A stretch of DNA of 32,000 bases from Candidatus Saccharimonadota bacterium (GCA_001761425.1 CP012986.1:570001-602000); one strand, 5' to 3'. Positions 1,592 through 30,529 are shown, numbered from the stretch's first letter. Numbers and translations: made by a program. Notes: generated by a model not told the origin, from the sequence alone.

Positions 1592-1617
1592 AAAGAATGA
1601 CTTAACCAAAAGATACT

Positions 1618-3024: not shown

Positions 3025-3030
3025 ACGGCT

Positions 3031-9533: not shown

Positions 9534-10921
9534 TGTCCTAAGGCCTCCAGTTTCTCCTTGATAAACCTGTCGTAGATATAGCCAAGGAATGTATAGTTGA
9601 GATTGTTTCTTTCGTTAAACCCTTCCAGGTAAGTTCTGTCGGCTTTACCAGGTTTTTTACACAGCTCGCTGTAGCCGTAAACTGTGAAACGCCCGTTATC
9701 CTCAAGAACTGGTGCGGAAACATTCCTGTAATCCGGGCCTTTGAAGCTTATCGATCTGTAACCGTCCTGAAGCCTCTCCATAGTTATATTCTCGTTTGAG
9801 ACAGGTCTTGTCGGTGCGCCTGCGTAGTTAGTCATCAACCAGTACTCGGACTCTGCCATACATCCGTTCACAGCATCAGCAGAATCAAGATACTTTCCAG
9901 GAGGTGTAAGACCACTTATACCGAGGCCTAGACCGCCCACCACCAGATTAACTGCTGCAAGCATATAAAAGATTTTTTCCCGATCTACAATGGTCCAGGT
10001 CTTTGATGCGTAGAATGCTGCCGGGACTGTTAACGGGTAAAGATATCTGAGCGATCTGTAGTCTGCTGTCAAGTATGAGAGCGTTACAAGGCCTGAGTAA
10101 GAGATTATCAAGACATCTTCTCTCGAGAAATTTATTTTTTCTCTGATTTCGGGTTTGAGATAGGCCAGGAGGATCGCTGCTGTCGGCAGAGTCATTATCA
10201 AAAGGTTATGAGGGTTCAAAGCTGTGCTTGTGTATCTCAGGAATACGTTAAGCATCAGGAAGTTTCCGAAGCTTGTTAGAGGGTTTCCTGTCTGGATATA
10301 GTTGTAGAGGAGCCATGGGACCAGTGTCAGGCCTGAAATTATCCCGGTCTTGACTATCTTTTTCAGGTCTCTCTGGAGCAGGATCAGCGGTATCAGGACG
10401 CCGAAGTTATACCTTGTCAGGAATGTAAGGCCGAGCCAGAGGCCTGACCGGGTTTTCTGGAAGTCGGCGAGGAAAAGTAATGCAAAGGCTAGTGAAAGCA
10501 TCTCGGTGCCGTTCATCGTCGAGAAAAATATCACGGCAGGAGTTAATGCGAAAATGTAGAACTTATCCGGTTCAAGGTCAAAGCTTTCCGAGAACTTTCT
10601 GGAACCGTAAAGGAAAAAAGCTGATGTCAGGCCTATAAAGACGTACTCGGAGATCTTTCTAGTGAAGATGTACTGAAGGAGGCCCATCGCTGTGGAGGCG
10701 AGTGGGGGCCTCAGCCATTCCATGTAGAAACCGCTGTGGAAGATATACTCCCCGATCATCGAGTAAGTGTTGAAATCCCAGGACCATCCTGTGCTGTGCT
10801 GGTAAAGCATCAGACCTGTAGCAAGGAGGAAAAAGACCAGAGTCAGATCTGTATACCTTTCTCTGATCCCTCCAGAATATTCTTTGACTCTTTCCTCTAT
10901 TTTCTCCGTCTCTATCTCCAT
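9524..10921 (-). CDS. polytopic membrane protein, candidate GT-C-type (ArnT/PMT-like) glycosyltransferase
   Basis: 465 aa with about 10-11 hydrophobic helices followed by a ~110-aa soluble C-terminal domain. It sits between a GT2 Dol-P-sugar-synthase-like gene and a GtrA-like gene, with 10-nt overlaps at both ends. The function is inferred from context and topology only. Confidence 0.5.
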   Translation of the reverse strand: MEIETEKIEERVKEYSGGIRERYTDLTLVFFLLATGLMLYQHSTGWSWDFNTYSMIGEYIFHSGFYMEWLRPPLASTAMGLLQYIFTRKISEYVFIGLTSAFFLYGSRKFSESFDLEPDKFYIFALTPAVIFFSTMNGTEMLSLAFALLFLADFQKTRSGLWLGLTFLTRYNFGVLIPLILLQRDLKKIVKTGIISGLTLVPWLLYNYIQTGNPLTSFGNFLMLNVFLRYTSTALNPHNLLIMTLPTAAILLAYLKPEIREKINFSREDVLIISYSGLVTLSYLTADYRSLRYLYPLTVPAAFYASKTWTIVDREKIFYMLAAVNLVVGGLGLGISGLTPPGKYLDSADAVNGCMAESEYWLMTNYAGAPTRPVSNENITMERLQDGYRSISFKGPDYRNVSAPVLEDNGRFTVYGYSELCKKPGKADRTYLEGFNERNNLNYTFLGYIYDRFIKEKLEALGQWK

Positions 10922-11613
10922 AAATTGATCCTCAGTTCCACAGTCTTTCTCAGAAAGTAAACTGAATCTCTGAAAACACTGACTTTCGAATCAGTGCTCT
11001 CCTCCCAGTCCACAGAAAACTCTTTCACATCCATATCTTTTCTCTGCGCTCTTACAAGCATCTCGGCATCCCAGAACCAGTGACTGCTCTCTACCTCGCT
11101 GAAAACATCCTCCACAGCCTCCGGGTCAAAGGCCTTGAACCCACACTGGTGATCTTTTATCATGGAGCCGAAGGCTTTTCTAATAAGTTCGTTGAAAACC
11201 ATGCTCGGCATCTCCCGTTTAAGACCTCTGTCAAGGCCTTTTTCTATTCTTCTGGAGCCTACTGCTATGTCATAGCCTTTTTCCAGATGTTTTCCTGCGT
11301 CTTCTATATGTTTCAGTTCTGTTGAAAGGTCTGCATCCGAGTAGACGAATTTTTCTGCCTCTACTTCTTGAAAGGCTTTTTCAAATGCAAGGCCTTTCCC
11401 CAGTCTCTTATCGAATTTCAGGTGTTTGATTTCTGGTATCTCTTTTTCCAGTCTGTCTGCTTCTTCCTGTGTTCCGTCGGTTGACCCGTCTGTCACTAAA
11501 ACTATCTGGAAAGGATCTATCTCGGTTTCTCTGAGGAACTCGATGGTTTTCTGTGCTGTATCCTCCAGTATCTCTACCTCGTTGTATACAGGGTAGACCA
11601 CTGCGAGTTCCAT
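10912..11613 (-). CDS. GT2 family glycosyltransferase (dolichyl-phosphate hexose synthase-like)
   Basis: VVYPVYNE..., VLVTDGSTDGT and SDADLS (DxD-type) motifs typical of DPM/DPG synthase-like GT2 enzymes. Confidence 0.8.
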   Translation of the reverse strand: MELAVVYPVYNEVEILEDTAQKTIEFLRETEIDPFQIVLVTDGSTDGTQEEADRLEKEIPEIKHLKFDKRLGKGLAFEKAFQEVEAEKFVYSDADLSTELKHIEDAGKHLEKGYDIAVGSRRIEKGLDRGLKREMPSMVFNELIRKAFGSMIKDHQCGFKAFDPEAVEDVFSEVESSHWFWDAEMLVRAQRKDMDVKEFSVDWEESTDSKVSVFRDSVYFLRKTVELRINLWR

Positions 11614-14071: not shown

Positions 14072-14213
14072 CGGACCTGAAGGGATTTGAACCCTTGACT
14101 TCGAGGTATTTCCATTCGAAGACCAAGATCTTCTCTAACCCCCCAACTTTTGCGGAAGCTCAAGCAGGAGGTATTAGGAACCTCGCGCTCTGTCCATGCT
14201 GAGCTACAGGCCC
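14072..14213 (-). tRNA. tRNA-Arg (anticodon CCT) interrupted by a 67-nt intron at the canonical 37/38 position
   Basis: Exon 1 (14213->14175) is GGGCCTGTAGCTCAGCATGGACAGAGCGCGAGGTTCCTA. Exon 2 (14107->14072) is ACCTCGAAGTCAAGGGTTCAAATCCCTTCAGGTCCG. Joined, they give a 75-nt cloverleaf with a CGAGG/CCTCG anticodon stem and loop TTCCTAA. The 5' half is nearly identical to that of tRNA-Arg(TCG) at 8176-8250. Confidence 0.8.
14108..14174 (-). other. tRNA intron (67 nt)
   Basis: This sequence lies between the two exons. I saw no C/D-box motifs (RTGATGA / CTGA pair) in it. The bulge-helix-bulge fold was not verified by hand. Confidence 0.7.
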
Positions 14214-17206: not shown

Positions 17207-17236
17207 GTAACCAGATAGTCCATGATTAGACCTGAG

Positions 17237-17308
17237 GCGGCGTTGGTCCAGTGGCTAAGACTCCGGCCTTCCAAGCCGGCGACCCGGGTTCAAATCCCGG
17301 ACGCCGCA
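17237..17308 (+). tRNA. tRNA-Gly (anticodon TCC)
   Basis: GCGGCGTTGGTCCAGTGGCTAAGACTCCGGCCTTCCAAGCCGGCGACCCGGGTTCAAATCCCGGACGCCGCA. It has acceptor GCGGCGT/ACGCCGC, anticodon stem CCGGC/GCCGG, loop CTTCCAA, and T-arm CCGGG-TTCAAAT-CCCGG. Confidence 0.9.
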
Positions 17309-17310
17309 AA
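17293..17310 (+). repeat. direct repeat copy 1 (AATCCCGGACGCCGCAAA), the 3' end of tRNA-Gly
   Basis: 18-nt exact match to 17412-17429. Confidence 0.85.
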
Positions 17311-17411
17311 TACATCGTATTTGCTCGAAGAAGCATTGAAAATTCGAATCCTTCGCCCCTCATCACTTTGTGCTCTTAATTCCGGGATTTCTGAGAAAAC
17401 TTGTTTTCGCC

Positions 17412-17429
17412 AATCCCGGACGCCGCAAA
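17412..17429 (+). repeat. direct repeat copy 2 (AATCCCGGACGCCGCAAA), an orphan copy of the tRNA-Gly 3' end
   Basis: 18-nt exact match to 17293-17310. No tRNA body precedes it. Confidence 0.85.
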
Positions 17430-17449
17430 CTGGTTACGCTCGTTTTCCC

Positions 17450-17468
17450 GAAAGCTCTCAGAGCTTTC
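17450..17468. repeat. 19-nt perfect palindrome GAAAGCTCTCAGAGCTTTC
   Basis: Read directly: 9-nt arms around a central C. It lies in the non-coding stretch after the orphan tRNA-end copy. Confidence 0.7.
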
Positions 17469-17530
17469 TGAAACAAGAAGGCCTGTTAAAGGCCTTCGAG
17501 ACACGCAATAAACCATGCTTTGCACGGCTT

Positions 17531-17665
17531 TCAGTATTTCAAGAAAATCTCCGATTTGCGGATCAAGTACCTTTCAACAGTAGCTTTTCCAATACCTGAA
17601 GAACCAATCATCATGATAGCAACTTTACCTTCCAGATCTGTAACAGGAACTAGATCGAAATTCCG
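17531..17665 (-). pseudogene. remnant of an SDR-family gene (N-terminal Rossmann segment only)
   Basis: Minus-strand translation gives ...NFDLVPVTDLEGKVAIMMIGSSGIGKATVERYLIRKSEIFLKY*. This is an SDR-like xGxxxGIG N-terminus with no ATG, and a stop about 20 codons after the glycine motif. Confidence 0.4.
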
Positions 17666-17734: not shown

Positions 17735-18505
17735 ATGGAATCTGAACAGGTACAGAGAGAAACACAGAAATTTATTAGAGAGAAAGTAGATGAGGCAGAT
17801 GCAGAAGGCCTTGTAGTAGGCCTCAGTGGAGGTATCGACTCAGCTACCTGTCTTAAACTGGCAGTAAGTGCTCTCGGCAGTGAAAAAGTCTTAGCATTGA
17901 TAATGCCGGGAGAACCGAGCAGAAAGAAAAATATTGAAGATGCCAGAGGCCTGGCAGAAAGTTTATCTGTTAAAAGGACTGAGATAGAGATAGATGAGAC
18001 TGTGGAAAGTTTCCGGGAAAGTCTGTCCTTCGAACCAGGTAAAGAAGGCCTTGGAAACGTAAGAGCCAGGACAAGGATGGTATACACCTATGCACTTGCC
18101 AACAAAGAAAATCTTCTCGTCCTGGGGACAGGTAACAGGACAGAGTTCCTCCTCGGTTACTTCACCAAGTACGGCGACGCTGCAACAGATATTGCTCCGC
18201 TCCTAGACCTTTACAAGACAGAAGTTAGACAGTTAGCCAAACACATAGGCCTTGACAGGAAATTCATCGATAAAAAGCCTACAGCAGGCCTCTGGAAAGG
18301 CCAGACAGATGAAGACGAAATCGGCACAAGCTACGAAACCATGGACAGGATCCTGGAAGCCCTGGTGGACGAAGAAAAATCCATGGAAAAGGCCTCTCAG
18401 TACTTGGAAGCGGAAAAAGATGTGATCAAGAGAATCGACGATATGTATAGAAATTCAGAGCATAAAAGGGAAGGTGTTCAAGGCCTGGAACTCGAGAAGG
18501 ATTAA
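17735..18505 (+). CDS. nadE: ammonia-dependent NAD+ synthetase
   Basis: PP-loop GLSGGIDSA and GTGNRTEFLLGYFTKYGD motifs, at about 256 aa. Confidence 0.9.
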   Translation: MESEQVQRETQKFIREKVDEADAEGLVVGLSGGIDSATCLKLAVSALGSEKVLALIMPGEPSRKKNIEDARGLAESLSVKRTEIEIDETVESFRESLSFEPGKEGLGNVRARTRMVYTYALANKENLLVLGTGNRTEFLLGYFTKYGDAATDIAPLLDLYKTEVRQLAKHIGLDRKFIDKKPTAGLWKGQTDEDEIGTSYETMDRILEALVDEEKSMEKASQYLEAEKDVIKRIDDMYRNSEHKREGVQGLELEKD

Positions 18506-18520
18506 ACTCTTCAAGGCCCT

Positions 18521-18527
18521 TTTTTTA
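18521..18527 (+). terminator. oligo-T tract (T7) after nadE
   Basis: Archaeal terminators are typically oligo-T. The tract lies 16 nt after the TAA stop. Confidence 0.4.
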
Positions 18528-18533
18528 CGAAGT

Positions 18534-18542
18534 TTTATTTTT
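18534..18542 (+). promoter_or_regulatory. TATA-like box (TTTTATTTT) upstream of the giant gene
   Basis: Centred about 27 nt upstream of ATG 18565. This supports ATG 18565, rather than TTG 18541, as a leaderless start. Confidence 0.35.
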
Positions 18543-18564
18543 GGACGGCTCTCTTATTGTATAC

Positions 18565-21500
18565 ATGGATTCAGGTAAAATCTCGAAGCTCCTCCTGATT
18601 TTCCTCATCTTAGGCCTCATCCCTCTCTCAGCTTCTATATCAGAGGTTGACGTTCTCGTAGTTAACGATGGACACACCCTGGATCCATCGGCATCGGTAG
18701 ATTATAGCCAGGAGGTCGATGAGAATTTTGAGGATATCTACAACGAGTCTCTTAAATCTATACAAGGGGTGGATGTAGATTATAGTAAGACTTCGGACGA
18801 TGAAAAGGAATCCGGACCTTCTCTGGAGACTATGAACCAGTATGACATGGTTGTCTGGTACACTTTAGCAGATAGTGCTAGTTCTCCGGGCGGTTTCAAA
18901 ACTCTAACCAGTACTGATGAAGAAAATGTTCGCGAGTATCTGGATCAGGGGGGGACTTTCTATCTGACGGGCCATACCCTAGATGATGAGGAATCTCTTT
19001 ACGGTGAAGGAGATTTTTTCAGGGAGGTCATGAATGCCAGATACAAGGATAATGATGGAAGTCCAAATTACTGGAGGTTTACTGATAGAGGCTCAAATGA
19101 TGGAGAGGATTGGGAGTATGTACAGGTAACTGACGGGGCACTTTCAGATACGGATAGAATGCTGTTCGATCAGGACGGGAAAATTGTCCTGACAGGAGAA
19201 GACTCTCATGCTATAACTGAGGATATGTCCTTTGAACTCAATACATCCACTAACCCCCCAAGCTCTCTGGGAGTCCTGACCGATAACTGTTACCATGAAC
19301 AAGACAATGAGACCGAACTCGATCAGTGTGATCCTAATCCTTGGCAAAACGCAGATGATGGTCTCAGACTAGTCAATAACAAACCTGTAGCTGATAGTAA
19401 GGGTGATACTGTAGATAAGGAAAATGTCAACATAAACGGAGCGGGTGATTCCAGCAGGATCACAGTAGACTACAGCGAGAGCCCTGACATGAAAACCGTA
19501 GCTGGAGTTGCTGTAAAAGATTCTAAAGACGTTGAAATGGAGCATTTTGACATCAGTAACGATGAAGGAAGTATTAAGAAGCTGAAGTCTATAGAAACCG
19601 AAGCCTTTGACGTCTACACGTTTCTTATAGACGATCAGTCCGACGGAAATGCAGAGTTCCTATTTAACGATACTGCAAGGCTAGCAGCTATTACTGTAAC
19701 TGTGAAAAACGCTGTAGGAGCCTATCCTGCGACTGATGTAACTACCAAAAGTGCTCCGGAGGATATCAGTACTTCCGTAGAAAGCCAGGATGGGGACAGG
19801 GTTATAGACTTCCTGGCAGCCTCGGATAGTCCTAGCACAACAAATGACGAAATGAACGATATGGCCACTACCAATCTAGGAGGTAGCTCTACTTTCTTAA
19901 CCAAAAGATTGGAAGGTTCCGACCCAGAGAGAACTATGGGATACAGCGGGCCGGAAAACATGGCCCACATAGTAATCAACCTCAGAAAGGATAGGGCTGA
20001 CGCTGAATACTATGTAGAGACTGATGGCTATGAAGACAACGGAGAGCCGGCAAGCAATCCAGGAAACAGCAATAATCAGGCAGATTACCCTGATGAGTAC
20101 GCTCACACACTTGTGAACTCTAGAGAAGATAAGTACAGGACTTTGGTCAGTTCTATTGGCTTCGAATCTATCAAGGGAGAACAAAGCAGGAAGCAACTAA
20201 TGGATAACACTCTAAGATTTCTTACAGGTCCGGTCGCCAATAATACAAGAGTTTACTCAGGAGAAAATATACCGGATAGCGGTGCAGACGAGTCAAGATA
20301 CACTAACAGCACGCTAAATATTGAAGCTGAGGGAGAAAACCTTCAGCAAAATCCTTCAGGCCTCAGACGTGCACGCTTCCTGCATGAAGGAACTCCTCAG
20401 GAATTTAAGCCTACCTTTGAATCAGGATTTGATAACTTCACGGAAGCTAATCAGACATGGGAAGGCGATTCTGAAGATGGAGGTTATGCAACTGTAACTA
20501 GATCATGCGGGGTAAAGAAAGGAGATCAGGTCTTAACACTCTATGCAAGAGACGACGAAACTTTGTTAGATTCTCGCGATGATGTAGCTGCTGTGAGGAT
20601 GTCAGAACCTGTGGACGTATCAAATCACCAGAATCTTGTGCTTGAATTTTATGTCTCGGACGATGGAGTTGATTGCGATGAGCCTGAATACGATTATGGC
20701 GAGCATCTCGATGTTATGTACAAAAATAATAATGGCTCCTATAGTAGGGCCAGAACAATCTATGCTGAATCTGACAACGTTAACTGGAGGAAGGTTCAGG
20801 TAGAGATTCCCGTGGATCGCAATGATCAGTTCAAGGTAAAGTTTAAGACTAGGGAAATGGATGTTGGTGATGCCTGGCTTGTAGATGAGGTTGAGATCAA
20901 TCAAGGCCTTAGTTTAACCGATGGAAGATGGGGAGACCAGAAAGAAAGTGTGGAAGGCTTTATCAACGCTACTAAAGCTGTTGATAACCTTGATTCCAAT
21001 CCTCGAGGAGTGAATCTCACCTATGGCGTCCAGTTTAAGGATGATTCCAACCAGGGTTACTGGGGTGTTCCGGAGAAAAGATGGGTCAAAATTGATACGG
21101 TCCCTCCTAATTCTCTGACAGATGTGAGTTTCGAAGATGACTATACCTCAGATGAAACTGTTAATATTTCGGTTACAAATGACTTCATACTTGAAAAAAG
21201 GGCGAACCTGACCAGGTTCAGCTGTGATCCTGAAAATGGAGAGTGGTCGGAGTGGAGAACGAGAGATAGTCAACAGGTGAGTCAGAAGTTTGAAATAGAT
21301 ATCACTGATCAGGCCTTGGGGTGCAGTGATTCTCAGGGTAACAGGACGATAAGTGTTCAGACAAGGGATTATGCAGGGAACCGTGCTCCGGAGATCAAGA
21401 AGGACTGGATAATCTATGATGCTGAAAGACCTGATTTCCTGGGTGCAAGGCCTGGGAACAGGTCTGCCGTTCAGTCGGATGTCACTGTGAATATCACAGC

Positions 21501-24500
21501 TTCCGATAACTTCGGGATTTCTGACAGGTTTACGGAGTATAATGCTGGACAGGAGGACAGTATCTCTTTCACTCCGAACGAGACTGTAGGGCTTGATTTC
21601 ACTGGTGAAGGCTGGAGGACCCTTGAGGCCTGGATCTATGACAGGGCGTCGAATCTCAGGGAGGTGAGCCTTGACTACGATATCGATGATACTGCTCCCT
21701 GGGTCAACGTTACTCCTGAAAGTAATAACGAGCCTAAAAACGATACTGCTGTGAAGCCGGATGAAACGTTCAGGATTGAGGCCTTTGACAGGAATTTTGA
21801 GTCTCTGACCGTGAATTCTGTAGGTAACAGTACTTTTTCGAATAATGTCAGTGACTTTGATCCTGAGTGGTCTGGTGGAAAGGTCAGGGATCTTGAGGTC
21901 TGGTTGAATGATTCTGCCGGTAACCAGCGTTTCAGGAATTACAGCTATACTGTTGATGGTCAGGCTCCTGTCTCTGAAGCGGTTGATACGGCTAATGAGA
22001 GTTATGTGAAGAGTGATGATGTTTTGAAGTTCAACTTTTCGGACTCCACTTCCGGAGTTGAAGGTGTCTCCACTTCCAAGGACAGGGAGAGAGGGGTTGA
22101 CTGGGATCTTGGTGTAGGCTTTGGCTCGGATGCCAGTGGGGAGACCGATCTATCTGTATCTGCGACTGACCGTGCTGGAAACACTTTGACGGAGAATTAT
22201 ACCTATACTCTGGACGATGAGCCTCCGGTCGCCGAAACCAATTACAGCCGGGAGGCAGATTCCACGGATGGATGGTTCAACAGAGACGTGGAGGTCGAGG
22301 TAAACGCCACGGATAACCAGGAGCTAGATACGATTATCTACGGTTCCAGCAGGGATGGAAGTGTATCAGCACCTGAACTTACAAGTAACACGAACACCAG
22401 TATCAAGGTCACCTGTCCGAATTCAAACATCTGTGAAAAAGTTGTAACTTACAACGCCAATGATTCGGCGGGCAACTACTTCCGGGATTCCTACAGAGAA
22501 TCCGAGACAGTTTCAATCGATAAGAAAGCACCTCTGATCGAAATAGGATCTCTCACACAGTCAGGCCTCATCGAGATAGAATCAGAAATCAGAGATCCTG
22601 GTATCGGAGTCCAGGACGCAAGCTTCAGAGTCCTCAACAGGAGCGATACATCACAGGTTCTCGAGTCAGGAGACCTGAACGAATCGAATAACTGGTCCTA
22701 CATCTGGGACTCGGAACAGGATATAGACAGCACACAGGAAGTCACTCTCAAGATAGAGGCCGAGGACAGGTTCCAGCAAAACAGCACAGAACAGACCGAG
22801 TTCAAAGTTGAGAACGAGAAAACAACAGCAACCATAACAAATCCGGAAGACGAGATAGTATCCGACAACTTCGACCTCTCAATAGAGGCTAACAGGCCTG
22901 GAAACTCCGAAGGGCTTAAATGGCATAACTTCACGGTGGATAGGAACGGAGAAGAGGTCTACAGCGAATCAAAGAGCCTTGAAGGAGCCGATACCCATCT
23001 TTTCGACAGGCAGTTCGATACTACAGAGCTGGATGGCGACGGTAATTACAGTTTGAATACTACTGCACTGAGCAATGGGACATCAGAGTACGCAACGGCT
23101 GAAAAATGGTTCTACCTTGATACCAGGCCTCCAGAGGCCTTGATCGAGACGGATATCAACGATTCATGGGTCACAGGAAGGATAGAGATAGATTTCGCCG
23201 CCTCGGACAGTGTGGGCAACGGAACCCTAGAATCTTACTACATGAATGACTCTGACTGGCAGAGAATGAACAAGAACCTGAACTACTCGGATAAGGCCTT
23301 CAACTTCAGTACCTCCGACAGATGTCAGGACTCTGCCTCGAATACCTGTGGAGTCAAGATCGTCGCTGAGGATAAGGCAGGTAACCTTAACAGCTCAATG
23401 GTGGAGTTCAAAGTCGATAACAGTCCTCCGGAAGTTGATCTGACCGCACCGGATGCTGAGTGGCAGAACTCGAACTTTAACGTAGCCAGAAACATCAGTG
23501 ACAATGTAGTTGACTCGAGAGATCTCTACTGTGAGGTGAAAGTTAACTCTACAGGATGGCGGGAGACACAGCTCTGTAACACCAACTACACTGTAGATAT
23601 CTCGGAAAGCTGCGACAGGGAAGGAGGAATATGTCAGGTCGAGATAAATGCCTCCCATCCAGAACTTCCGCTATACCAGACAGATCAGAAGTTCTACTCC
23701 ATAGACACAGAGCAACCAGAAATATACACAGGACCGGAGCCAGCACCAGAAACAGTAATCAACGGCAGCGAAGATATAAGCCTAGGATTCCAGGAACCGA
23801 CCTCAGACATGAACTACTCGAAATGGGACGAAGGAAAAGGCCTGAAAGACCTGGAAACCGACCAACCTTTCAAGCCAGGATGGACCGAAAACGGAAACCG
23901 GACTTTGGAAATACTGCTGAACGACACGGCAGGAAACCTCAGAACAGAGCAGTACATATACACCTTCGACAACAAAGCCCCAGAACTCCAGAACTCAGGC
24001 CTCTCCGTATCAGAAGACGGATTCTTCGACGAAACCAGGGTGTACAGGGGAGAAGAGATCAAGCTGGAGCTGAACGTATCCGAGAACATAGAGATGGAAA
24101 AAGTTACTGCCGAGATAAGCAGCGATGGGGAAAACTGGAACAAATCACTTCAACTCGAGGAAGGAAACCTGACCGAAGGCCTCTGGACCAAAAACCTGGC
24201 CAATACGACAACAGGCCTCTACACCGTCCAGAAAGTGTACCTGGAAGATAGAGCAGGGAACAGAACCAGGGTCTCCTCAAGCCTTCCGGAGTTCAGGATC
24301 ATGAACTACTCCGAAAACGTTGAGATAGGTGGAATGAAAGAAGTAGATGCAGGGAACAGCACGGATTTCAACTACACAGTAGATTTCAACAGGACTCAAG
24401 GAGAGAGGCAGCTCAAAGTCTACGTTCCGCCCTCCGGTCCGGGAGAAACCTTTGACCCATACTTCCAGCTGGAAAACGTATCCTGTAAAACATCAGAATG

Positions 24501-27500
24501 TAACGTGACCCATCAGGAAAACTTCTTTAACCTATCATACACCGGAGGAAGCCCTGAGGTATCGGTGACAGCTCATTCAGAGGCCTTCACTCCTGAACAA
24601 GATACTGAAGGTAATTTCACATCTCAACTGCTTGATAACACGAGGAAGAGCGAGGTAAAGATCAGTGCTCCCGAACTGGAGATAAACAGCAGTTCCTGTA
24701 GTCCTGCATGTACGCTGGACCAGTTTGACAGCTTCAACCTGACCCTCGAGCCAGTGAACAATATGACATCTACCAGCACCGGTACAGCCCTGAACACGAG
24801 TCTCTCTATCTCCTCTGGAGGCCTCGAGGATAGATCGAGAGAACTTGGAAACCTTGGAACTGGAGAAAATCTCAGTGAGAGGTTCGCGGATATCTCATCG
24901 GACGAGGCAGGAAACTTCACCTATGACGCTGTCCTCGAGGATGCTACAGGAGTTTACAGGGACTCAAAGGAGATCGAGGTAGAGTTCCTGGACGCAGAGG
25001 AACCCGATATTGTTGATGCAGGGCCTTCCTCCAGAAGAGTAAACGTCAACGACTCCATAGATCTTCTGGCAGAACTAACCGACAACGTCGAAGTCGCCGA
25101 TGCAAACCTGACCCTTGAATATCCGAACGGCACGGCACAGAACCTCTCCCTGGACAGAGACATAGAAAACGAATGGGCAAACTCTTTCAACAAAACATCT
25201 GAAAAAGGAATCTACCAGCTCAAAAAAGTCTATGCCTCAGACCGGAGAGAAAACACAAACCAGACCACGCTCAACTCACAGTTCAAGGTGACAGAACTCA
25301 GACTCAACTCCTCTGTTTCAAAGACCAATATACAAAACCGGGAAGCTGTCAACTTCACAGTAAACATAACAGGAAACTCCACAGAAGTCCAGAGAGTCAC
25401 GGTAAACGCGTCCACACCAGAAGGCCTCAACCGGTCCAGAGAATACACCGATGTAGGCCTCAACAACACTCTTAAATTCGACCGGTTCGATAACTCAGGA
25501 AACTACTCCTTCAACGTCACGGTAAACGCAGGCCTCAAAGTCACTAATCAGACCTCAGACGTCTTCGTCAGGTACGGGAACAGCTCAGTAGAATCTCTGG
25601 ACTCAGGAAACAACAGGACTCTGGAGATACCGGAGACCATAAGTTCAGCATCCCTTGAATGGAGACTCACACCGATCAACGGGAGCCTGAAAAACCTCGC
25701 CTTCGAGCCCGGTTCAAATGACGAAACAGTTCTCAGCACAGGATCTGCCCAGAGTGTAGATGATCTCGTCTACACTGAAGGAGCAAGGACCGAACAGCTT
25801 ACAGTAAACCCGGAAAACACAGGATCAGCAGATATAACAGCTATCCTCGAGGCAGAAAACGGAGGAAACACGAGTAAACAAGTCTCCGTAGAAGTCACAG
25901 AACAGGACAATGAAAGGCCTCAGATCAACTCCTTCAACCTATCGGAAAAAGACTTGAACCTTAATGAAACACTCGATTTCTCTGCAAATATAACAGACAA
26001 CTCGATAATCAAAAACTCAACGCTAGAGATCGGCTATCCTAACCCGTCAAACGCTACAGAGACCATAAACATGGAGAGAATCGGAGAACAGACCTATCAA
26101 ACGGAGTTCAACAACCTGAACCAGACAGGAAATTACACAGCAACTCTCAAGGCCTACGATATCTCCGGAAACAGCTACATGGTCGCAGAGAATTTCACAG
26201 TCACCGATAGATACAGTATAGAGATCGATACCGACAAAAGCATATACATGAAGGAAGAAGATGCGGTCATAAGCTTCGATGTCCTGGACGCAAGCGGAGA
26301 TCAGGTCAAAAACTACAGCCTGAACTCCTCGATAGAATACAGCAACTCCAATCATTCACTGGTCGAAGGCCAGAACGTTTCAAGGACAGAGTTCACAGTT
26401 GAAAGAGATTATCCGCCAGATATAACCAATGAACTTGGCGGAGACCCTATCTACTACAGCATATACGCTGAGGCCTCAAGCAGAGGAAACAAAGGAAAGG
26501 CCTCGGCCAGCATGCCGGTTCACAGGGTATTCGACGTAAGTCTGAACAACGATCAGTACGTTGCTCCAGGTGAGAACTTCCTCGTGACCTCTGACTGGAG
26601 AAAGAAGAATGGAGAGCTTCTGCCTCAGACATGGCAGCCGTTTATACTCTGTGATGCCTGTCCAAGCAACTACAAACTCATGTTGAGAGATCTGGAGACA
26701 GATAATTATGTCAAGAACTTGACAGCCCCGAACCAGACAGGCAGCTATTCCTTCACGCTCAGAGGTTCATACCAGGGTAACTCGGAGAGCCAGGATCCTA
26801 CAGGTGCGGAGGACGAACCTCCATTCGGCACATTCGAAGTCGTACCAGGCGGGAAACCGCCGAACAGTGGCGATGAGGAACAGGCTCTGCCTTCAGGAGG
26901 CGGTGGAGGATTCTCTGGAGGAGGGCCTTCGATGGAGATTGTAAGACGGTCGCCTCCTCCAAGCATCCCTTCGGGAACCGAACAGGTGAACCTGTCTGTG
27001 AACACCAATATCGCGGCCGAATGCGTTTATTCAAGGAACAGGGTTCCAGAGGCCGTCCCATTCGATGAGGCCTCAGATTTCCAGGAAACCGGCGGAGTGA
27101 ATCACAGCACGCCGTTAACTGCAGAAGAAGGTGTGACGTACAGCTACAACATTATGTGTGCCTCTGGCGAAGCCAACTCGACCCAGGAGATTATTTTCTC
27201 CACAGAAACTCTGGAAGGCTTCTCATACGCAGGCCCTACATCAGTCACGCCAAACAACGAGTCCGTATCACAGAAAGGAAACTACAGTGCAAGAGTAGCT
27301 GTCTACAACGAGAAAAGCGAGGCCTTGACCGTAGACCTGGACGTCGAGGGAACCTGCTGCAACCTGAGCTTTATGATCGGCTCAGAGAAGAAAGAATCGG
27401 TCACGATACCGGCTGAAGGAGAGAAAAACCTGGATCTGAACGTCTACTCCCCGCTTCATGTAAAACCAGGATCCTACAACGGGACCCTAAAATTAACAAG

Positions 27501-28215
27501 TCCAAACGAATCGACCAGCAGGCCTATAAATTATCAAGTCAGCCGACACTCAGCAGTTGAAAACTACACCGATCTCAGGACACGTGCAGGAATCCTCAAC
27601 TCCACCATCAGCGACTACAGGATCGCAGGAATAGATACCTCAAACATGGAAAAGGCCTATCAAAACCTGACATCTCATCTAGAAGAGGCAAACTCCTCCA
27701 TCCAAAGAGATGACCTTCAGGGCCTTAAGGCCTCAGTTGTCGAAGCCAGATCTGACGCTGAAACAGTTAGAAAGATGCTCGATAACGCCTCCTGGAAGAA
27801 ATACATCTTGTTGAACTGGTGGAAGTGGGCAGCAGGATTTGTAGGTCTGTATATTTTGTTCTTCCTGGCTGTGATGGTTGGAATACCATACTACAGGATC
27901 CAGACAGAGCTGACAAGGATTAACAGCCAGTTGGAAAGTGCTGTGGACGCAAGAAAGAAAGGAGAGAAACAGTACTTCCAGAGAAAGATCGACAAGGATA
28001 CATTCAACGAAATGATGACAGAAAGACAGAATGAGGTACTCCAGCTACGCGGAGACAAAGAAGATCTTAAAGAAGAGCTGGACGGGTTCTTAATGAGCAA
28101 ACTTACGCTGGAGAATTACCTGAAAGCACCGTGGAAAGGCATGGAGGAAATGGAGAAATGGTGGGCAGCCAACAGAAAGGCCCGCCAGAACCTCAAAGAT
28201 GAACAAGAAGAATAG
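18565..28215 (+). CDS. giant (~3,216 aa) membrane-anchored, sequon-rich cell-surface protein / putative adhesin
   Basis: A single uninterrupted ORF. The N-terminal signal-like sequence is MDSGKISKLLLIFLILGLIPLSAS. Next come a ~600-aa N-terminal module and a jelly-roll/MAM-like module (~20410-20905). A tandem array of ~90-110-aa Ig-like units follows, marked by D-x-x-(A/P/Q)-P boundaries and D-x-(A/S)-G-N motifs. Later elements are a Gly-rich linker (PSGGGGGFSGGGPS), a single C-terminal TM helix (AAGFVGLYILFFLAVMVGIPYY, ~27829-27895), and a ~105-aa charged coiled-coil tail. I counted about 118 N-x-S/T sequons by hand. Confidence 0.85.
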   Translation: MDSGKISKLLLIFLILGLIPLSASISEVDVLVVNDGHTLDPSASVDYSQEVDENFEDIYNESLKSIQGVDVDYSKTSDDEKESGPSLETMNQYDMVVWYTLADSASSPGGFKTLTSTDEENVREYLDQGGTFYLTGHTLDDEESLYGEGDFFREVMNARYKDNDGSPNYWRFTDRGSNDGEDWEYVQVTDGALSDTDRMLFDQDGKIVLTGEDSHAITEDMSFELNTSTNPPSSLGVLTDNCYHEQDNETELDQCDPNPWQNADDGLRLVNNKPVADSKGDTVDKENVNINGAGDSSRITVDYSESPDMKTVAGVAVKDSKDVEMEHFDISNDEGSIKKLKSIETEAFDVYTFLIDDQSDGNAEFLFNDTARLAAITVTVKNAVGAYPATDVTTKSAPEDISTSVESQDGDRVIDFLAASDSPSTTNDEMNDMATTNLGGSSTFLTKRLEGSDPERTMGYSGPENMAHIVINLRKDRADAEYYVETDGYEDNGEPASNPGNSNNQADYPDEYAHTLVNSREDKYRTLVSSIGFESIKGEQSRKQLMDNTLRFLTGPVANNTRVYSGENIPDSGADESRYTNSTLNIEAEGENLQQNPSGLRRARFLHEGTPQEFKPTFESGFDNFTEANQTWEGDSEDGGYATVTRSCGVKKGDQVLTLYARDDETLLDSRDDVAAVRMSEPVDVSNHQNLVLEFYVSDDGVDCDEPEYDYGEHLDVMYKNNNGSYSRARTIYAESDNVNWRKVQVEIPVDRNDQFKVKFKTREMDVGDAWLVDEVEINQGLSLTDGRWGDQKESVEGFINATKAVDNLDSNPRGVNLTYGVQFKDDSNQGYWGVPEKRWVKIDTVPPNSLTDVSFEDDYTSDETVNISVTNDFILEKRANLTRFSCDPENGEWSEWRTRDSQQVSQKFEIDITDQALGCSDSQGNRTISVQTRDYAGNRAPEIKKDWIIYDAERPDFLGARPGNRSAVQSDVTVNITASDNFGISDRFTEYNAGQEDSISFTPNETVGLDFTGEGWRTLEAWIYDRASNLREVSLDYDIDDTAPWVNVTPESNNEPKNDTAVKPDETFRIEAFDRNFESLTVNSVGNSTFSNNVSDFDPEWSGGKVRDLEVWLNDSAGNQRFRNYSYTVDGQAPVSEAVDTANESYVKSDDVLKFNFSDSTSGVEGVSTSKDRERGVDWDLGVGFGSDASGETDLSVSATDRAGNTLTENYTYTLDDEPPVAETNYSREADSTDGWFNRDVEVEVNATDNQELDTIIYGSSRDGSVSAPELTSNTNTSIKVTCPNSNICEKVVTYNANDSAGNYFRDSYRESETVSIDKKAPLIEIGSLTQSGLIEIESEIRDPGIGVQDASFRVLNRSDTSQVLESGDLNESNNWSYIWDSEQDIDSTQEVTLKIEAEDRFQQNSTEQTEFKVENEKTTATITNPEDEIVSDNFDLSIEANRPGNSEGLKWHNFTVDRNGEEVYSESKSLEGADTHLFDRQFDTTELDGDGNYSLNTTALSNGTSEYATAEKWFYLDTRPPEALIETDINDSWVTGRIEIDFAASDSVGNGTLESYYMNDSDWQRMNKNLNYSDKAFNFSTSDRCQDSASNTCGVKIVAEDKAGNLNSSMVEFKVDNSPPEVDLTAPDAEWQNSNFNVARNISDNVVDSRDLYCEVKVNSTGWRETQLCNTNYTVDISESCDREGGICQVEINASHPELPLYQTDQKFYSIDTEQPEIYTGPEPAPETVINGSEDISLGFQEPTSDMNYSKWDEGKGLKDLETDQPFKPGWTENGNRTLEILLNDTAGNLRTEQYIYTFDNKAPELQNSGLSVSEDGFFDETRVYRGEEIKLELNVSENIEMEKVTAEISSDGENWNKSLQLEEGNLTEGLWTKNLANTTTGLYTVQKVYLEDRAGNRTRVSSSLPEFRIMNYSENVEIGGMKEVDAGNSTDFNYTVDFNRTQGERQLKVYVPPSGPGETFDPYFQLENVSCKTSECNVTHQENFFNLSYTGGSPEVSVTAHSEAFTPEQDTEGNFTSQLLDNTRKSEVKISAPELEINSSSCSPACTLDQFDSFNLTLEPVNNMTSTSTGTALNTSLSISSGGLEDRSRELGNLGTGENLSERFADISSDEAGNFTYDAVLEDATGVYRDSKEIEVEFLDAEEPDIVDAGPSSRRVNVNDSIDLLAELTDNVEVADANLTLEYPNGTAQNLSLDRDIENEWANSFNKTSEKGIYQLKKVYASDRRENTNQTTLNSQFKVTELRLNSSVSKTNIQNREAVNFTVNITGNSTEVQRVTVNASTPEGLNRSREYTDVGLNNTLKFDRFDNSGNYSFNVTVNAGLKVTNQTSDVFVRYGNSSVESLDSGNNRTLEIPETISSASLEWRLTPINGSLKNLAFEPGSNDETVLSTGSAQSVDDLVYTEGARTEQLTVNPENTGSADITAILEAENGGNTSKQVSVEVTEQDNERPQINSFNLSEKDLNLNETLDFSANITDNSIIKNSTLEIGYPNPSNATETINMERIGEQTYQTEFNNLNQTGNYTATLKAYDISGNSYMVAENFTVTDRYSIEIDTDKSIYMKEEDAVISFDVLDASGDQVKNYSLNSSIEYSNSNHSLVEGQNVSRTEFTVERDYPPDITNELGGDPIYYSIYAEASSRGNKGKASASMPVHRVFDVSLNNDQYVAPGENFLVTSDWRKKNGELLPQTWQPFILCDACPSNYKLMLRDLETDNYVKNLTAPNQTGSYSFTLRGSYQGNSESQDPTGAEDEPPFGTFEVVPGGKPPNSGDEEQALPSGGGGGFSGGGPSMEIVRRSPPPSIPSGTEQVNLSVNTNIAAECVYSRNRVPEAVPFDEASDFQETGGVNHSTPLTAEEGVTYSYNIMCASGEANSTQEIIFSTETLEGFSYAGPTSVTPNNESVSQKGNYSARVAVYNEKSEALTVDLDVEGTCCNLSFMIGSEKKESVTIPAEGEKNLDLNVYSPLHVKPGSYNGTLKLTSPNESTSRPINYQVSRHSAVENYTDLRTRAGILNSTISDYRIAGIDTSNMEKAYQNLTSHLEEANSSIQRDDLQGLKASVVEARSDAETVRKMLDNASWKKYILLNWWKWAAGFVGLYILFFLAVMVGIPYYRIQTELTRINSQLESAVDARKKGEKQYFQRKIDKDTFNEMMTERQNEVLQLRGDKEDLKEELDGFLMSKLTLENYLKAPWKGMEEMEKWWAANRKARQNLKDEQEE

Positions 28216-28250
28216 AACTCTTTTTCAAGGGGCGGAACAAACAAAATATT

Positions 28251-29786
28251 ATGCCTGGAAACAAGGTCGCAGTAACACAGTTCAAGAAAAAAGACAACGG
28301 CTCTGGAAAAGAGGTACAGGTATCCTTCCAGAACCAGTCAGACGACCTTTTCTACGACTTCATTAACTTCTACTCCGGCAAGAAAAACCTGGACACAGAA
28401 CTACTTGACCTCGCACCAGGAGAAGTCAAAAACATAACGGTAAAGGCCTCAGACCTCAAAGGGAGACTCAAAATCTCCAAAGACAGCTTCAACTCTGGCG
28501 TAATATTCAGAGAAGGAGAGGACGCAACAGAAAAACAGCTGGTCCCAAATAGCAACCAGAAAACCGGAGAAAAAAAGGCTTCAAGACAGAAAAAGGCCTC
28601 TGAACAGGAAAAAAATCTTTTCGACAGAGCTATGGAAGGTGAAATCGAGCCTCCACATCTGAAGGAAAAACTCGGTAGAGAAGTACCAGACCTCTCAGAA
28701 ACTGTAAAAGAGATGAAAGAAAAAACCCTGGAAACTGTAGAAAAAGAAAAGAAACCATCACGGAGCAAGAACTCAGAAGAAAAAAATATTACCGAAAATC
28801 CTGGACAAGGCCTTGAAAAAGGCTCTGAGGATAAATTGGATGTAGATGAAAATGAAAATAATGAACATGAAGGAGACGAACACAGACATGAAGAGGTCGA
28901 GAACAGATCGCTTCTGGATTCTTTGATACATCCGTTTACTCATCCTCAGCCCGTGGAGAGGCCTGAAAAACAGGTTGAAGAAACGACTGAAGAAGATGAG
29001 GAGGCCTCTGATGACGGTGAAGATGAGGATGTGCTGGTGACTGAGAAGAACGATTACAGCACTGAAAGAGTTACCACTGGTGCTCTTAATCTTGATAACA
29101 AGATGGAAGGTGGTTTTGTCAAAGGCACTATGAACTTGATCACGGGTAAGACAGGTACGGGTAAGACTGCGTTCTGTTCGAACTATATCTGGGAGGGTGC
29201 GAAAAAAGGAGAGCCAGGAGTTTATGTAACGACAGAAGAGAGGGAGGAGGATATACTCGAGGATATAAACTCGATGTTCGGCTGGGACTTTGATTCGCTT
29301 GCTGGACAGGACAAGGTCCGTGTATTATCCATCAAACCTGTTTTCCCCAGCCAGAATATGGACAACATTTCCAGGATCGTCAGAAGCTATATTTCAGACC
29401 TCCTGGACCAGGTAAACGATGCTATAGAAGAGATAGGAGCAGAAAGAGTAGTAATCGATTCAGTCTCACTTGTACAGATGTTCATACAGGATGAATACAT
29501 GTCACGTGTCGCCCTGTCCAGCCTGATGAACAACCTGAGAGAAGCCGGAGTCACCGCAGTCCTGGTCGGATCCATACCAGAAACCTCGGAAGGCCTGTCA
29601 AAAGAGGGCATCATAGAGTACCTGGTGGATACAGTCATACTGCTGGAGTTCGTACCAGTCGCAGAAGACTACAATAGAACACTGAAGATACGTAAGATGC
29701 GTAGAACCGACCATGAAACAGATATCTTTCCTTTCGAGGTTACAGCGGACGGACTGGAAATCCATGAGGCTTACGAATCTTTATAG
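28251..29786 (+). CDS. KaiC/RecA-superfamily ATPase with unique N-terminal domain and long charged disordered linker
   Basis: The C-terminal ~240 aa has Walker A GKTGTGKT, Walker B VVIDSV, and ...KIRKMRRTDHETDIFPFEV. Residues 1-100 form a beta-rich domain I cannot place. Residues ~100-270 are a K/E/D-rich low-complexity region. There is no signal peptide or TM segment. Confidence 0.75.
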   Translation: MPGNKVAVTQFKKKDNGSGKEVQVSFQNQSDDLFYDFINFYSGKKNLDTELLDLAPGEVKNITVKASDLKGRLKISKDSFNSGVIFREGEDATEKQLVPNSNQKTGEKKASRQKKASEQEKNLFDRAMEGEIEPPHLKEKLGREVPDLSETVKEMKEKTLETVEKEKKPSRSKNSEEKNITENPGQGLEKGSEDKLDVDENENNEHEGDEHRHEEVENRSLLDSLIHPFTHPQPVERPEKQVEETTEEDEEASDDGEDEDVLVTEKNDYSTERVTTGALNLDNKMEGGFVKGTMNLITGKTGTGKTAFCSNYIWEGAKKGEPGVYVTTEEREEDILEDINSMFGWDFDSLAGQDKVRVLSIKPVFPSQNMDNISRIVRSYISDLLDQVNDAIEEIGAERVVIDSVSLVQMFIQDEYMSRVALSSLMNNLREAGVTAVLVGSIPETSEGLSKEGIIEYLVDTVILLEFVPVAEDYNRTLKIRKMRRTDHETDIFPFEVTADGLEIHEAYESL

Positions 29787-29842: not shown

Positions 29843-30529
29843 CTAGAATCCGGCCTGTTCTTTCATCTTGATTCCATTATCTGTTATCTCTACAGGATGT
29901 GTTCCCGGTGTGTGATCTGTTCTTCTCATTTTTCTGACTTCGATGTTTCTGAAGCTTCCTTCTCCCATCGATTCGTAGTAAAGGGCTACTACTCCGTCGG
30001 CTACGAACTCAGATACGTTTGATCGGGAAAGTGAGTTCTCACTGTTTTCAGGGATCTCTGCTGTCATGATTACTGTTGAGTCGGATTTCCTGAGCATTTT
30101 GACCAAGTCCTGAAGGTTTCTTCTGACTTCAAATTTGTCGCCCCAGTAAGTGGTGAAGACGCTCATCGAGTCCAGTATCACCCGGTCATAGTCTCCGCTG
30201 TGAAGTAACTGTTTAACCTGTCCAGAAAGATACTGGTTTTCAGACGGCTCACTGTACTCCATCCTGAGATCTCCCTCATCCTCATGCTTCCTAAGATCCC
30301 ATCCAAATACAACAGCATCATCCCTGATAGCTTCGATAGGCTCCTCAGTAGAAATATACAGACATTTCTGCCCCTTACTGATTCCCTCCATCAAGAACTG
30401 GTTACAGAAAGTAGTCTTACCCGTACCTGTACCGCCTGAGATCAAAGTAACAGAACTCTCCGGAAAACCACCGTCAATCAAATCATCAAGGCCTTCAATC
30501 CCCGTCGTAATTCTCTCAACTTCAGTCAT
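29843..30529 (-). CDS. KaiC/RecA-superfamily ATPase, single domain
   Basis: GIEGLDDLIDGGFP, Walker A GGTGTGKT, Walker B VILDSM, and ...EVRKMRRTDHTPGTHPVEI. It is 228 aa. Confidence 0.8.
   Translation of the reverse strand: MTEVERITTGIEGLDDLIDGGFPESSVTLISGGTGTGKTTFCNQFLMEGISKGQKCLYISTEEPIEAIRDDAVVFGWDLRKHEDEGDLRMEYSEPSENQYLSGQVKQLLHSGDYDRVILDSMSVFTTYWGDKFEVRRNLQDLVKMLRKSDSTVIMTAEIPENSENSLSRSNVSEFVADGVVALYYESMGEGSFRNIEVRKMRRTDHTPGTHPVEITDNGIKMKEQAGF

Follow-up and report, generated by a model that had tools for sequence, protein, structure and literature searches.

How DPANN archaea recognise and attach to their hosts is an open question, and in nanohaloarchaea attention has so far centred on SPEARE proteins and LamG lectins. 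The locus considered here, a stretch of 32,000 nt (GCA_001761425.1, CP012986.1:570001–602000; hereafter the window), raises this question in another form. It contains a gene for a predicted type-I membrane protein of 3,216 aa, followed by two genes for KaiC-like ATPases, and we asked what kind of protein this is and what it might do. Judged by its sequence, the giant protein is a second kind of nanohaloarchaeal giant surface protein, unrelated to SPEARE, and it belongs to a large uncharacterised family in which a C-terminal membrane anchor is linked to a KaiC-like ATPase; all features that define the family are found in the window.

An intact gene of nanohaloarchaeal origin

A preliminary description of the window had reported a continuous open reading frame (ORF) of 3,216 aa filling 30% of it. 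The ORF listing and the translation agree: a single ORF spans positions 18541–28215 on the plus strand and yields 3,216 aa when read from the ATG at 18565 (Table 1). This ATG is the likely start because it lies 22 nt downstream of a conserved box, TTTTATTTTT. The box and its surroundings are invariant upstream of the gene in the window and in three related loci (L012, L011 and L013), while the encoded proteins are merely 44–91% identical. With the spacing typical of archaeal TATA elements, the box is a putative TATA-type promoter, and the mRNA would be leaderless or nearly so.

A frameshift or a split caused by assembly, the weakness to which the preliminary description had pointed, is countered by collinear full-length homologues in four independent assemblies (P0001–P0004), which measure 3,215, 3,267, 3,240 and 3,451 aa and are 91, 54, 44 and 30% identical to the giant protein, respectively. 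Comparison with the closest homologue gives a nonsynonymous rate (dN) of 0.048 and a synonymous rate (dS) of 0.16, and most of the gene is under purifying selection (dN/dS ∼0.3 overall, <0.2 in many windows of the comparison). The four homologues and the dN/dS values together argue that the ORF is not a frameshift product, a chimera or a relic. An artefactual origin, whether by chimeric assembly or as a pseudogene or unexpressed relic, can accordingly be set aside with near certainty: the general caution owed to a source that is probably a metagenome assembly speaks for it, and the 3,216 codons without a stop, the equal length of the homologues, the purifying selection and the conserved promoter box all speak against it.

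Over its C-terminal 362 aa the protein shares 96% identity with one from the metagenome-assembled genome (MAG) 'Nanohaloarchaea archaeon SW_7_46_7', which marks the organism as a nanohaloarchaeon, and genome matches to the locus came from Nanohalobium, Asbonarchaeum, Nanoanaerosalina and further nanohaloarchaeal MAGs. Word-indexed searches for homologues were sparse, with four matches for the whole protein, one for a head profile and three for a tail profile. The giant protein matched no family above cut-off in Pfam (ten overlapping tiles) or NCBIfam (whole protein), and no protease or nuclease family was detected there, as inspection by eye had already indicated; head and C-terminal profiles retrieved only noise from the PDB sequences. 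Hydropathy over the whole protein revealed strongly hydrophobic stretches only at aa ∼8–30 and ∼3086–3108, consistent with the signal-like N-terminus and single transmembrane (TM) helix of the preliminary description. The predicted signal peptide contains neither a Cys lipobox nor an RR motif, as judged by sequence inspection.

A conserved membrane anchor encoded next to a KaiC-like ATPase

The C-terminal region, modelled with AlphaFold2 (AF2) from a 19-sequence alignment, is the best-resolved part of the protein (mean predicted local distance difference test score, pLDDT, 84.4). The two membrane-proximal beta-sandwiches that had been picked out by eye were modelled at pLDDT 80–95. They are followed by a three-helix bundle and by a continuous helix (aa 3085–3138) that would cross the membrane and enter the cytoplasm, where two more helices follow. 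Foldseek searches with the model returned generic tandem Ig/fn3 matches only. Beta-sandwich B displays an NNGT-like strand, an invariant CC pair and the pattern VPL..G.Y, and the P, Y and R of the P-Y-Y-R motif at the end of the TM helix are invariant in 11–19 diverse sequences. Comparison of orthologues, which had been suggested as a way to tell variable from conserved modules, identified two blocks of the head, V1 and V2 (see below), as variable and the tail as the most conserved region: aa 3101–3216 are 100, 91, 91 and 44% identical in the four homologues, against 91, 54, 44 and 30% for the whole protein. Of the positively charged coiled-coil tail described previously, the helical character is upheld by the model and the charge is not, the tail being near neutral (K+R 21, D+E 23, net ∼−2) and slightly basic in its juxtamembrane part alone.

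The downstream neighbour, KaiC-L, begins with an orphan region of ∼90 aa, continues through an acidic linker and ends in its only KaiC-type RecA ATPase domain (aa ∼270–511); it matches KaiC in the PDB at 1e-58 (phmmer). Both KaiC-L and the convergent KaiC-S pass the PF06745 gathering cut-off of 26.6 bits and carry the Walker A motif GKTGTGKT and the catalytic TTEE. Neither is ArlH, since they score 56 and 61 bits against the 215-bit cut-off of NCBIfam NF052589, and the window lacks arl genes.

The arrangement is not particular to the window. Every nanohaloarchaeal locus has the giant gene, then a same-strand KaiC-family ATPase gene and then a convergent short KaiC gene, the last being present at few loci of the wider family. 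A KaiC-like gene follows the tail gene at all 13 loci derived from genomes or homologues and at 45 of the 48 evaluable loci among the 49 (GC content 0.25–0.57) obtained in a metagenome scan. The linked KaiC gene lies on the same strand as the tail gene in 54 loci, mostly separated from it by −22 to +56 nt. When the flanking ORFs of 61 loci were clustered, only these two families, tail gene and KaiC, proved recurrent (61 and 58 loci), the next being L35Ae with 14. Moreover, the linked KaiC proteins form a distinct orthogroup, being 48–67% identical across lineages versus ∼35% to the paralogue at the same locus, and most retain an intact Walker A motif (52/54) and the [ST]-x-EE motif (47/54). 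In nearly all cases, then, a KaiC-type ATPase gene adjoins that of the conserved tail, which suggests coupling between the surface protein and an ATPase inside the cell.

Several further features of this part of the locus deserve mention. In nanohaloarchaea KaiC-L (458–720 aa) bears an orphan, beta-rich N-terminus of ∼90 aa and a long, highly acidic linker (window 28251–29060), both absent from the ∼240-aa orthologues elsewhere; at the P0004 locus (L014) KaiC-L measures 239 aa and has no N-terminal extension. KaiC-S is exceptionally conserved, with identities of 100, 93 and 89% in L012, L011 and L001, where the giant protein is 91, 54 and 36% identical; the values for NAD synthase are 96% and 65%. 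In some relatives the tail is extended by a second, similar helical unit (L003 4701–5336 and L014 18286–18894; ..QQYSNAAIDADRYDRIM.. and ..EEGEIEEKRFKRLM..), which suggests that the motif of the tail is a SHOCT-like helical element capable of repetition. The oligo-T tract of the conserved element at the stop codon of the giant gene, TAGAACTCTTTTTCAAGGGGCGG, may attenuate or partly terminate transcription. A similar motif, TAAACTCTTCAAGGCCCTTTTTTT, is found at window 18503–18526, after the NAD synthase stop codon, and the two may represent a shared terminator-type element. A role of the locus in anti-phage defence was rejected: PADLOC gave partial, P-loop-level mad8 matches of both KaiC proteins (27–29 bits) and no match for the giant protein.

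A large family of proteins with the same anchor

An exhaustive HMMER profile search with the C-terminal 432 aa (profile A3) retrieved 1,292 cluster representatives at E≤1e-3; no other search brought the wider family to light. Among the top 150 representatives, 103 share beta-sandwich B (profile positions ∼105–210), bundle, TM helix and tail at the C-terminus, in proteins of 240–6,221 aa, some of which are fragments. Most full-length members possess a signal peptide and 4–7.5 N-x-S/T sequons per 100 aa; many have a non-acidic composition rich in Asn. Their heads differ: some have the N-terminal alpha/beta domain of the giant protein, and others start with NosD/beta-helix repeats. Nine members of ∼1,100 aa have zero Pfam matches. 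Those in low-GC archaeal contigs typically comprise ∼1,000–1,100 aa and lack known domains, with 5–7.8 sequons per 100 aa; the contigs were judged archaeal from L35Ae, ABCE1-like, YGR210-like GTPase and NusA-KH neighbours and one Aenigmatarchaeota MAG. Low GC content and habitat point to DPANN-like carriers of the wider family. Neither the anchor module nor its linkage to KaiC was found described in the literature searched; a 2017 survey of KaiC proteins lies outside that search, and a prior description is possible.

Beta-sandwich A has a distribution of its own. Tandem arrays of 3–9 copies of the domain (A.C.Y....F..T.G..H....G..Y.Y.V.C) are found in 42 library proteins that are otherwise unrelated and have Ig/fn3-type Pfam matches; a subtilase and a cytochrome-c-containing protein are among these proteins.

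A stalk enriched in glycosylation sequons

By hand, the preliminary description had counted ∼118 N-x-S/T sequons and placed ∼110 of these in aa ∼650–3090, an excess of about threefold. The recount gives 118 in total and 110 in that region, compared with 38.9±5.5 in shuffled sequences (2.8-fold, z=13). Control motifs all remain at ∼1x, namely the reverse [ST]-x-N (46 versus 39), N-[ST], N-x-x-[ST], D-x-[ST] and Q-x-[ST], and sequon density is 4.5 per 100 aa in the giant protein versus 0.58 in the other 19 genes of the window. Since the controls are flat and the other genes are sequon-poor, the excess is specific to the glycosylation motif, and it points to selection for N-x-S/T sequons as such, beyond composition. 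The enrichment does not extend to aa 1–649 (8 sequons, 7.6 expected), and the tail has none. The homologues P0001–P0004 contain 116, 96, 93 and 154 sequons, and 57 of the 118 positions are common to at least three of the four. N-glycosylation of such sequons by AglB-type enzymes is established in archaea, and the giant protein is probably N-glycosylated.

At least 12 Ig-like units had been recognised by eye. A hidden Markov model (HMM) trained on the protein itself finds at least 13: repeats of ∼95 aa occupy aa 850–2553, 13 of them with domain E<1e-14 and one more weakly supported. The linker motifs D-x-[AS]-G-N and D-x-x-x-P recur along the stalk. Its Pfam and NCBIfam scores are sub-threshold (Big_3_3 20.3, Big_13 16.1, DUF4625 19.5, OmpL47 20.2), and relatives pass the cut-off for Big_13 (57.6 and 44.2 bits) and Big_7; confident models were obtained for the two membrane-proximal sandwiches alone. 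The Gly-rich hinge, previously located at 26890–26930, occupies 26887–26928 in the translation. The stalk of P0004 contains a lineage-specific insertion with 25 sequons in one 100-residue alignment bin.

A head with two variable, mosaic blocks

The head comprises an alpha/beta domain, split in two by V1, and, in V2, a predicted jelly roll. The alpha/beta domain had no match in Pfam, NCBIfam or the PDB sequences, and a beta-alpha-beta pattern appears in an AF2 model of low confidence (pLDDT ∼50–64). Its second part, with the motifs EYAHTLV, SIGFESI and LRFLTGP, is 90–96% identical to P0001, and the motifs of its first part recur in the heads of P0015–P0022, P0062 and P0040. The jelly-roll or MAM-like unit noted earlier gains support from fold comparison: in Foldseek searches against the PDB, aa ∼618–780 matched carbohydrate-binding modules (CBM61, 22, 4 and 16), MAM domains (meprin and neuropilin), the reelin subrepeat and the EphA7 ligand-binding domain with E-values of 2e-7 to 5e-5. 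There were 123 PDB matches at E≤1e-3, with target TM-scores of 0.5–0.67, and the pLDDT of the modelled region was 50–83. Pfam Reelin_subrepeat-B scored 19.9 bits on V2, under its 27-bit cut-off, and 31.9 bits on the homologue P0015.

V1 and V2 stand out in comparison with the strain that carries P0001 (L012, 91% identical overall). Outside V1 and V2 the identity is 92–100% nearly throughout, with dS of ∼0.03–0.2. Inside the sharp borders of V1, nucleotide identity falls to 42–76% and amino acid identity to 48–68%, and dS exceeds 1 or is saturated. V2 (nt ∼20401–20900) is patchier than V1, with amino acid identity of 60–82% and dS of 0.3–1.4. The ratio dN/dS (omega) stays below 1. The pattern thus speaks for recombinational import of divergent alleles and against positive selection in place, and it indicates allele replacement at the sequon-poor tip of the protein. 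V1 and V2 are also the least conserved regions at deeper divergence, and P0004, the most distant homologue (L014 8548–18903, 30% identical), is without most of either block.

An origin of the two blocks from a diversity-generating retroelement or from silent cassettes was rejected. No second copy of V1 or V2 exists within the window, and the divergence fits allele import rather than targeted A-mutagenesis because synonymous sites are saturated and indels are present. Nor was a reverse transcriptase gene detected in the window.

Table 1. Features of the giant gene and its surroundings (window coordinates)
Feature	Residues (aa)	Position (nt)	Strand	Remarks
TATA-like promoter box TTTTATTTTT		18533–18542	+	22 nt upstream of ATG 18565
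Giant gene	1–3216	18565–28215	+	3,216 codons plus stop; 9,651 nt; 30% of the window
Sec-type signal peptide (predicted)	1–∼24	18565–18636	+	MDSGKISKLLLIFLILGLIPLSAS/I; hydropathy; basic n-region, hydrophobic core, SAS motif
N-terminal alpha/beta domain, part 1	25–240	18637–19284	+	motifs VLVVNDGH, YDxVVWYTL, GGTFYLTGH; columns invariant
V1, variable inserted domain	241–507	19285–20085	+	sharply bounded mosaic block
N-terminal alpha/beta domain, part 2	508–612	20086–20400	+	EYAHTLV, SSIGFESI, LMDNTLRFLTGP; conserved in all homologues
V2, jelly roll (predicted)	613–780	20401–20904	+	CBM/MAM/reelin-subrepeat-like; patchy mosaic block
Sequon-dense, beta-rich stalk	781–2774	20905–26886	+	∼100 of the 118 sequons
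Gly-rich hinge PSGGGGGFSGGGPS	2775–2788	26887–26928	+	G run invariant in homologues
Membrane-proximal beta-sandwich A (..AAECVYSRNR..YSYNIMC..)	2792–2880	26938–27204	+	AF2 pLDDT mostly 80–90
Membrane-proximal beta-sandwich B	2886–2993	27220–27543	+	AF2 pLDDT 81–94; first element of the conserved anchor module
Extracellular three-helix bundle with sequons (predicted)	2996–3083	27550–27813	+	AF2 helices H212–236, H242–263, H267–299; pLDDT 87–97
Single TM helix (predicted)	∼3086–3108	27820–27888	+	ends in P-Y-Y-R; hydropathy; continuous helix 3085–3138 in the model
Cytoplasmic helical tail (predicted)	3109–3216	27889–28212	+	motif ARKK.EKQYF.R.ID..TF....RQ..L.LR near-invariant; pLDDT 71–84
Conserved element TAGAACTCTTTTTCAAGGGGCGG		28213–28235	+	at/after the giant-gene stop; nearly invariant in window, L012, L011, L013 and L001 (36% identical)
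KaiC-L	511 in total	28251–29786	+	starts 35 nt after the giant gene; Pfam PF06745 197 bits
KaiC-S, single-domain KaiC-like ATPase	228 in total	29843–30529	−	convergent with KaiC-L; Pfam PF06745 205 bits

Other genes in the window

The remaining neighbours are housekeeping genes of the sort expected in a small archaeal genome and include GatB/GatE, pyruvate kinase, glycogen phosphorylase-like, NAD synthase and thioredoxin-reductase-like genes. A 298-aa protein (3383–4279, plus strand), encoded shortly after GatB and a small cupin gene, combines an aminoacyl-tRNA editing domain of the YbaK/ProX type with a GatB_Yqey domain. Three adjacent or overlapping genes at 9120–11613 on the minus strand, ∼7 kb from the giant gene, encode a small GtrA-like membrane protein of 137 aa, a protein of 465 aa that weakly matches GT87 and a glycosyltransferase of family GT2 (233 aa); together they resemble a lipid-linked sugar donor or transfer cluster. 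An Rfam tRNA match of 142 nt (14072–14213, minus strand), not reported by ARAGORN, is probably an intron-containing archaeal tRNA. The tRNA-Gly(UCC) gene (17237–17308, plus strand) overlaps the 5' end of a 125-aa ORF without a family match (17222–17599), which makes at least the beginning of this ORF probably spurious.

Comparison with known systems

The preliminary description had set the protein beside the giant surface proteins already known from nanohaloarchaea. Those of the SPEARE type (NAR1_1133, SVXNc_0300 and BNXNv_0298) comprise 4,000–9,409 aa and have a large cytoplasmic VirB4/TraG-like ATPase domain (originally termed 'type III restriction'), one or more LamG domains and a VirB4-like gene next door (PMC6642349, PMC10266531). 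The protein described here resembles them in phylum, in its giant ectodomain with many Ig-like units and a predicted Sec signal, in the TM segment near the C-terminus, in having its intracellular part most conserved and in the P-loop ATPase gene directly downstream; a role in host interaction is proposed for both. It is nevertheless not one of them. Its 108-aa tail gave no ATPase or ResIII match (Pfam, aa 2971–3216; NCBIfam, whole protein) and is modelled as three helices; LamG had no match in the ten overlapping Pfam tiles at E≤1, the 30%-identical P0004 alone having a precomputed Laminin_G_3; no VirB4/TraG gene was found directly downstream, where the neighbours are of the PF06745 KaiC family; and no sequence homology was detected.

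Precedent for contact between a membrane protein and a KaiC-like ATPase comes from the crenarchaeal archaellum motor, in which the helical cytosolic domain of the single-pass membrane protein ArlX binds the KaiC-like ArlH (PMC8978795). This is the only well-documented precedent for the contact proposed below, and the parts are alike: a single-pass protein with a helical cytosolic domain and a single-domain KaiC-like ATPase. However, ArlX has no ectodomain and is encoded in the arl operon with ArlI and ArlJ, whereas no arl genes lie near the giant gene; KaiC-L fails the ArlH model, and the tail has no detectable similarity to any family. KaiC-like ATPases have also been proposed to be archaeal signal-transduction hubs that link many inputs and outputs (Makarova, Galperin and Koonin 2017, as presented in PMC5847659 and PMC6393860). 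The neighbours of the giant gene are single-domain KaiC-family ATPases of the kind that this proposal concerns.

Two other groups of surface proteins invite comparison. In archaea, S-layer systems with a membrane stalk include SlaB of Sulfolobales and the C-terminally anchored haloarchaeal S-layer glycoprotein. The giant protein shares with them a signal peptide, heavy N-glycosylation (here, sequons), beta-sandwiches that lead into a helical segment, and anchoring by a C-terminal TM helix; it differs in its much larger size, its long conserved cytoplasmic tail, its ATPase gene partner and the absence of a PGF-CTERM/archaeosortase signal. In bacteria, giant repeat adhesins (such as the ice-binding RTX adhesin MpIBP, SiiE and Bap-type proteins) are exported by type I secretion or sortase pathways, are stiffened by Ca2+ and are not known to be N-glycosylated. 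They too use a long tandem Ig-like rod as an extender with sugar- or protein-binding modules at its far end; unlike the giant protein, they are not known to have an anchor made of TM helix and tail or an ATPase partner.

Proposed function and its alternatives

We propose that the giant protein is a type-I surface glycoprotein acting as a glycan-shielded receptor-adhesin, the tail of which docks a KaiC-like ATPase, and we give this reading an even chance. The Sec signal peptide would export ∼3,060 aa. A densely N-glycosylated stalk of ∼20 beta-sandwich domains, with an estimated reach of ∼80 nm (20 domains at ∼4 nm each), would project the head away from the cell. The nearly sequon-free head would present the alpha/beta scaffold with its V1 insert and then the lectin-like V2 jelly roll; exchange of V1 and V2 between strains would be expected of parts that touch a variable partner, most plausibly the glycosylated envelope of the host. 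The anchor module (beta-sandwich, three-helix bundle, TM helix and tail with PYYR and EKQYFxRxID) would cross into the cytoplasm, where the tail would bind the KaiC-like ATPase encoded directly downstream, in nanohaloarchaea perhaps together with the convergent second KaiC. Engagement of the head could then be reported to, or be controlled by, the KaiC hub. The ligand, the contact of the tail with KaiC and the direction of signalling are points that we infer.

Several observations weigh against this proposal. Adjacency of genes is no proof of physical contact between tail and KaiC, and the oligo-T element between the giant gene and KaiC-L may mean that strict co-transcription fails here. The AF2 model of the head (aa 24–830, six sequences) is poor (mean pLDDT 41.7) and usable for the jelly roll alone, leaving V1 and the alpha/beta domain without an assigned fold. 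The gene table of the cultured SVXNc lists only two RecA-superfamily ATPases, neither adjoining a giant gene; because no such arrangement appears there, anchor and KaiC module are not required by all host-attached nanohaloarchaea. Finally, many family members of ∼1,000 aa are extremely dense in sequons and have no recognisable ligand-binding domain, and the family has the look of an envelope component inherited vertically at a single locus; a structural, S-layer-type role suits this at least as well as adhesion does.

These last points lead to the main rival, according to which the protein is the principal envelope (S-layer-type) glycoprotein or its membrane anchor, the KaiC-like ATPase organises the lattice or regulates insertion into it, and the variable tip reflects escape from viruses and not choice of host. 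The resemblance to archaeal S-layer systems in signal peptide, sequons, sandwiches, helical stalk and TM anchor favours it, as do the single conserved locus with synteny kept across lineages, the typical low-GC archaeal members of the family described above and the S-layer-like surface seen on nanohaloarchaea by electron microscopy (PMC7443923; bioRxiv 10.1101/2023.02.24.529834). Yet other proteins are annotated as S-layer in cultured nanohaloarchaea (PMC10266531), Pfam and NCBIfam gave no PGF-CTERM or S-layer family match, and the head contains a lectin-like jelly roll. A tail of 108 aa conserved above the rest and a dedicated ATPase partner are no known features of S-layers, and known S-layer subunits fall far short of 3,216 aa and ∼20 tandem domains. 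On balance we hold this explanation to be possible but somewhat unlikely. Less probable again, and in our view improbable, is that the head is a displayed enzyme, for instance a hydrolase of host envelope glycans or proteins, with D, H, E and C residues of the alpha/beta domain being catalytic and V2 serving as a targeting CBM. Invariance of VNDGH, LTGH, C242, E-x-A-H and GFE in the five closest homologues agrees with such an activity, and a CBM-like jelly roll follows the alpha/beta domain as in many glycoside hydrolases; no enzyme family was matched in Pfam, NCBIfam or the PDB sequences, however, the head model gives the domain no confident fold, and in wider relatives His137 is replaced by Gln and the first motif varies (VDDSH, VEDAH, VRSGN), against a conserved active site. 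It is very improbable that the protein is a SPEARE-type giant, in which an adhesin, either joined in one chain with a secretion ATPase of the VirB4/TraG type or partnered by one, would serve as a channel into the host or a device for invading it. The shared phylum, giant ectodomain, C-terminal TM segment, conserved cytoplasmic part and downstream P-loop ATPase gene (PMC6642349, PMC10266531) are offset by a cytoplasmic part of 108 aa of helices with no VirB4 match, by RecA-like ATPases of the KaiC family next door, by the lack of a detected LamG domain and by the absence of any detected sequence relationship beyond the protein's own family.

The receptor-adhesin reading has a wider and more tentative form, to which we give less than even odds. 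The anchor module and its dedicated KaiC-like ATPase may constitute a widespread, undescribed archaeal transmembrane coupling device, common in small-genome, DPANN-like archaea, in which interchangeable glycan-coated ectodomains, such as Ig stalks topped by lectin-like, beta-helix or other heads, are mounted on one tail that docks a hexameric KaiC-type ATPase; its nanohaloarchaeal version would have expanded to a fibre of 3,216 aa that recognises the host and has recombining cassettes at its tip. If so, the device would provide outside-in sensing of contact or inside-out control of the surface coat, integrin-like or lattice-organising, on the basis of a KaiC hub. For the question of how DPANN archaea find and hold their hosts, the locus offers experimental handles in the two recombining tip cassettes, the sequon-bare head on its stalk and the short conserved tail with a KaiC-type partner. 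The pair of anchor and KaiC occurs in hundreds of other archaeal proteins, and its function would bear both on the biology of the archaeal envelope and on the idea of KaiC proteins as signalling hubs.

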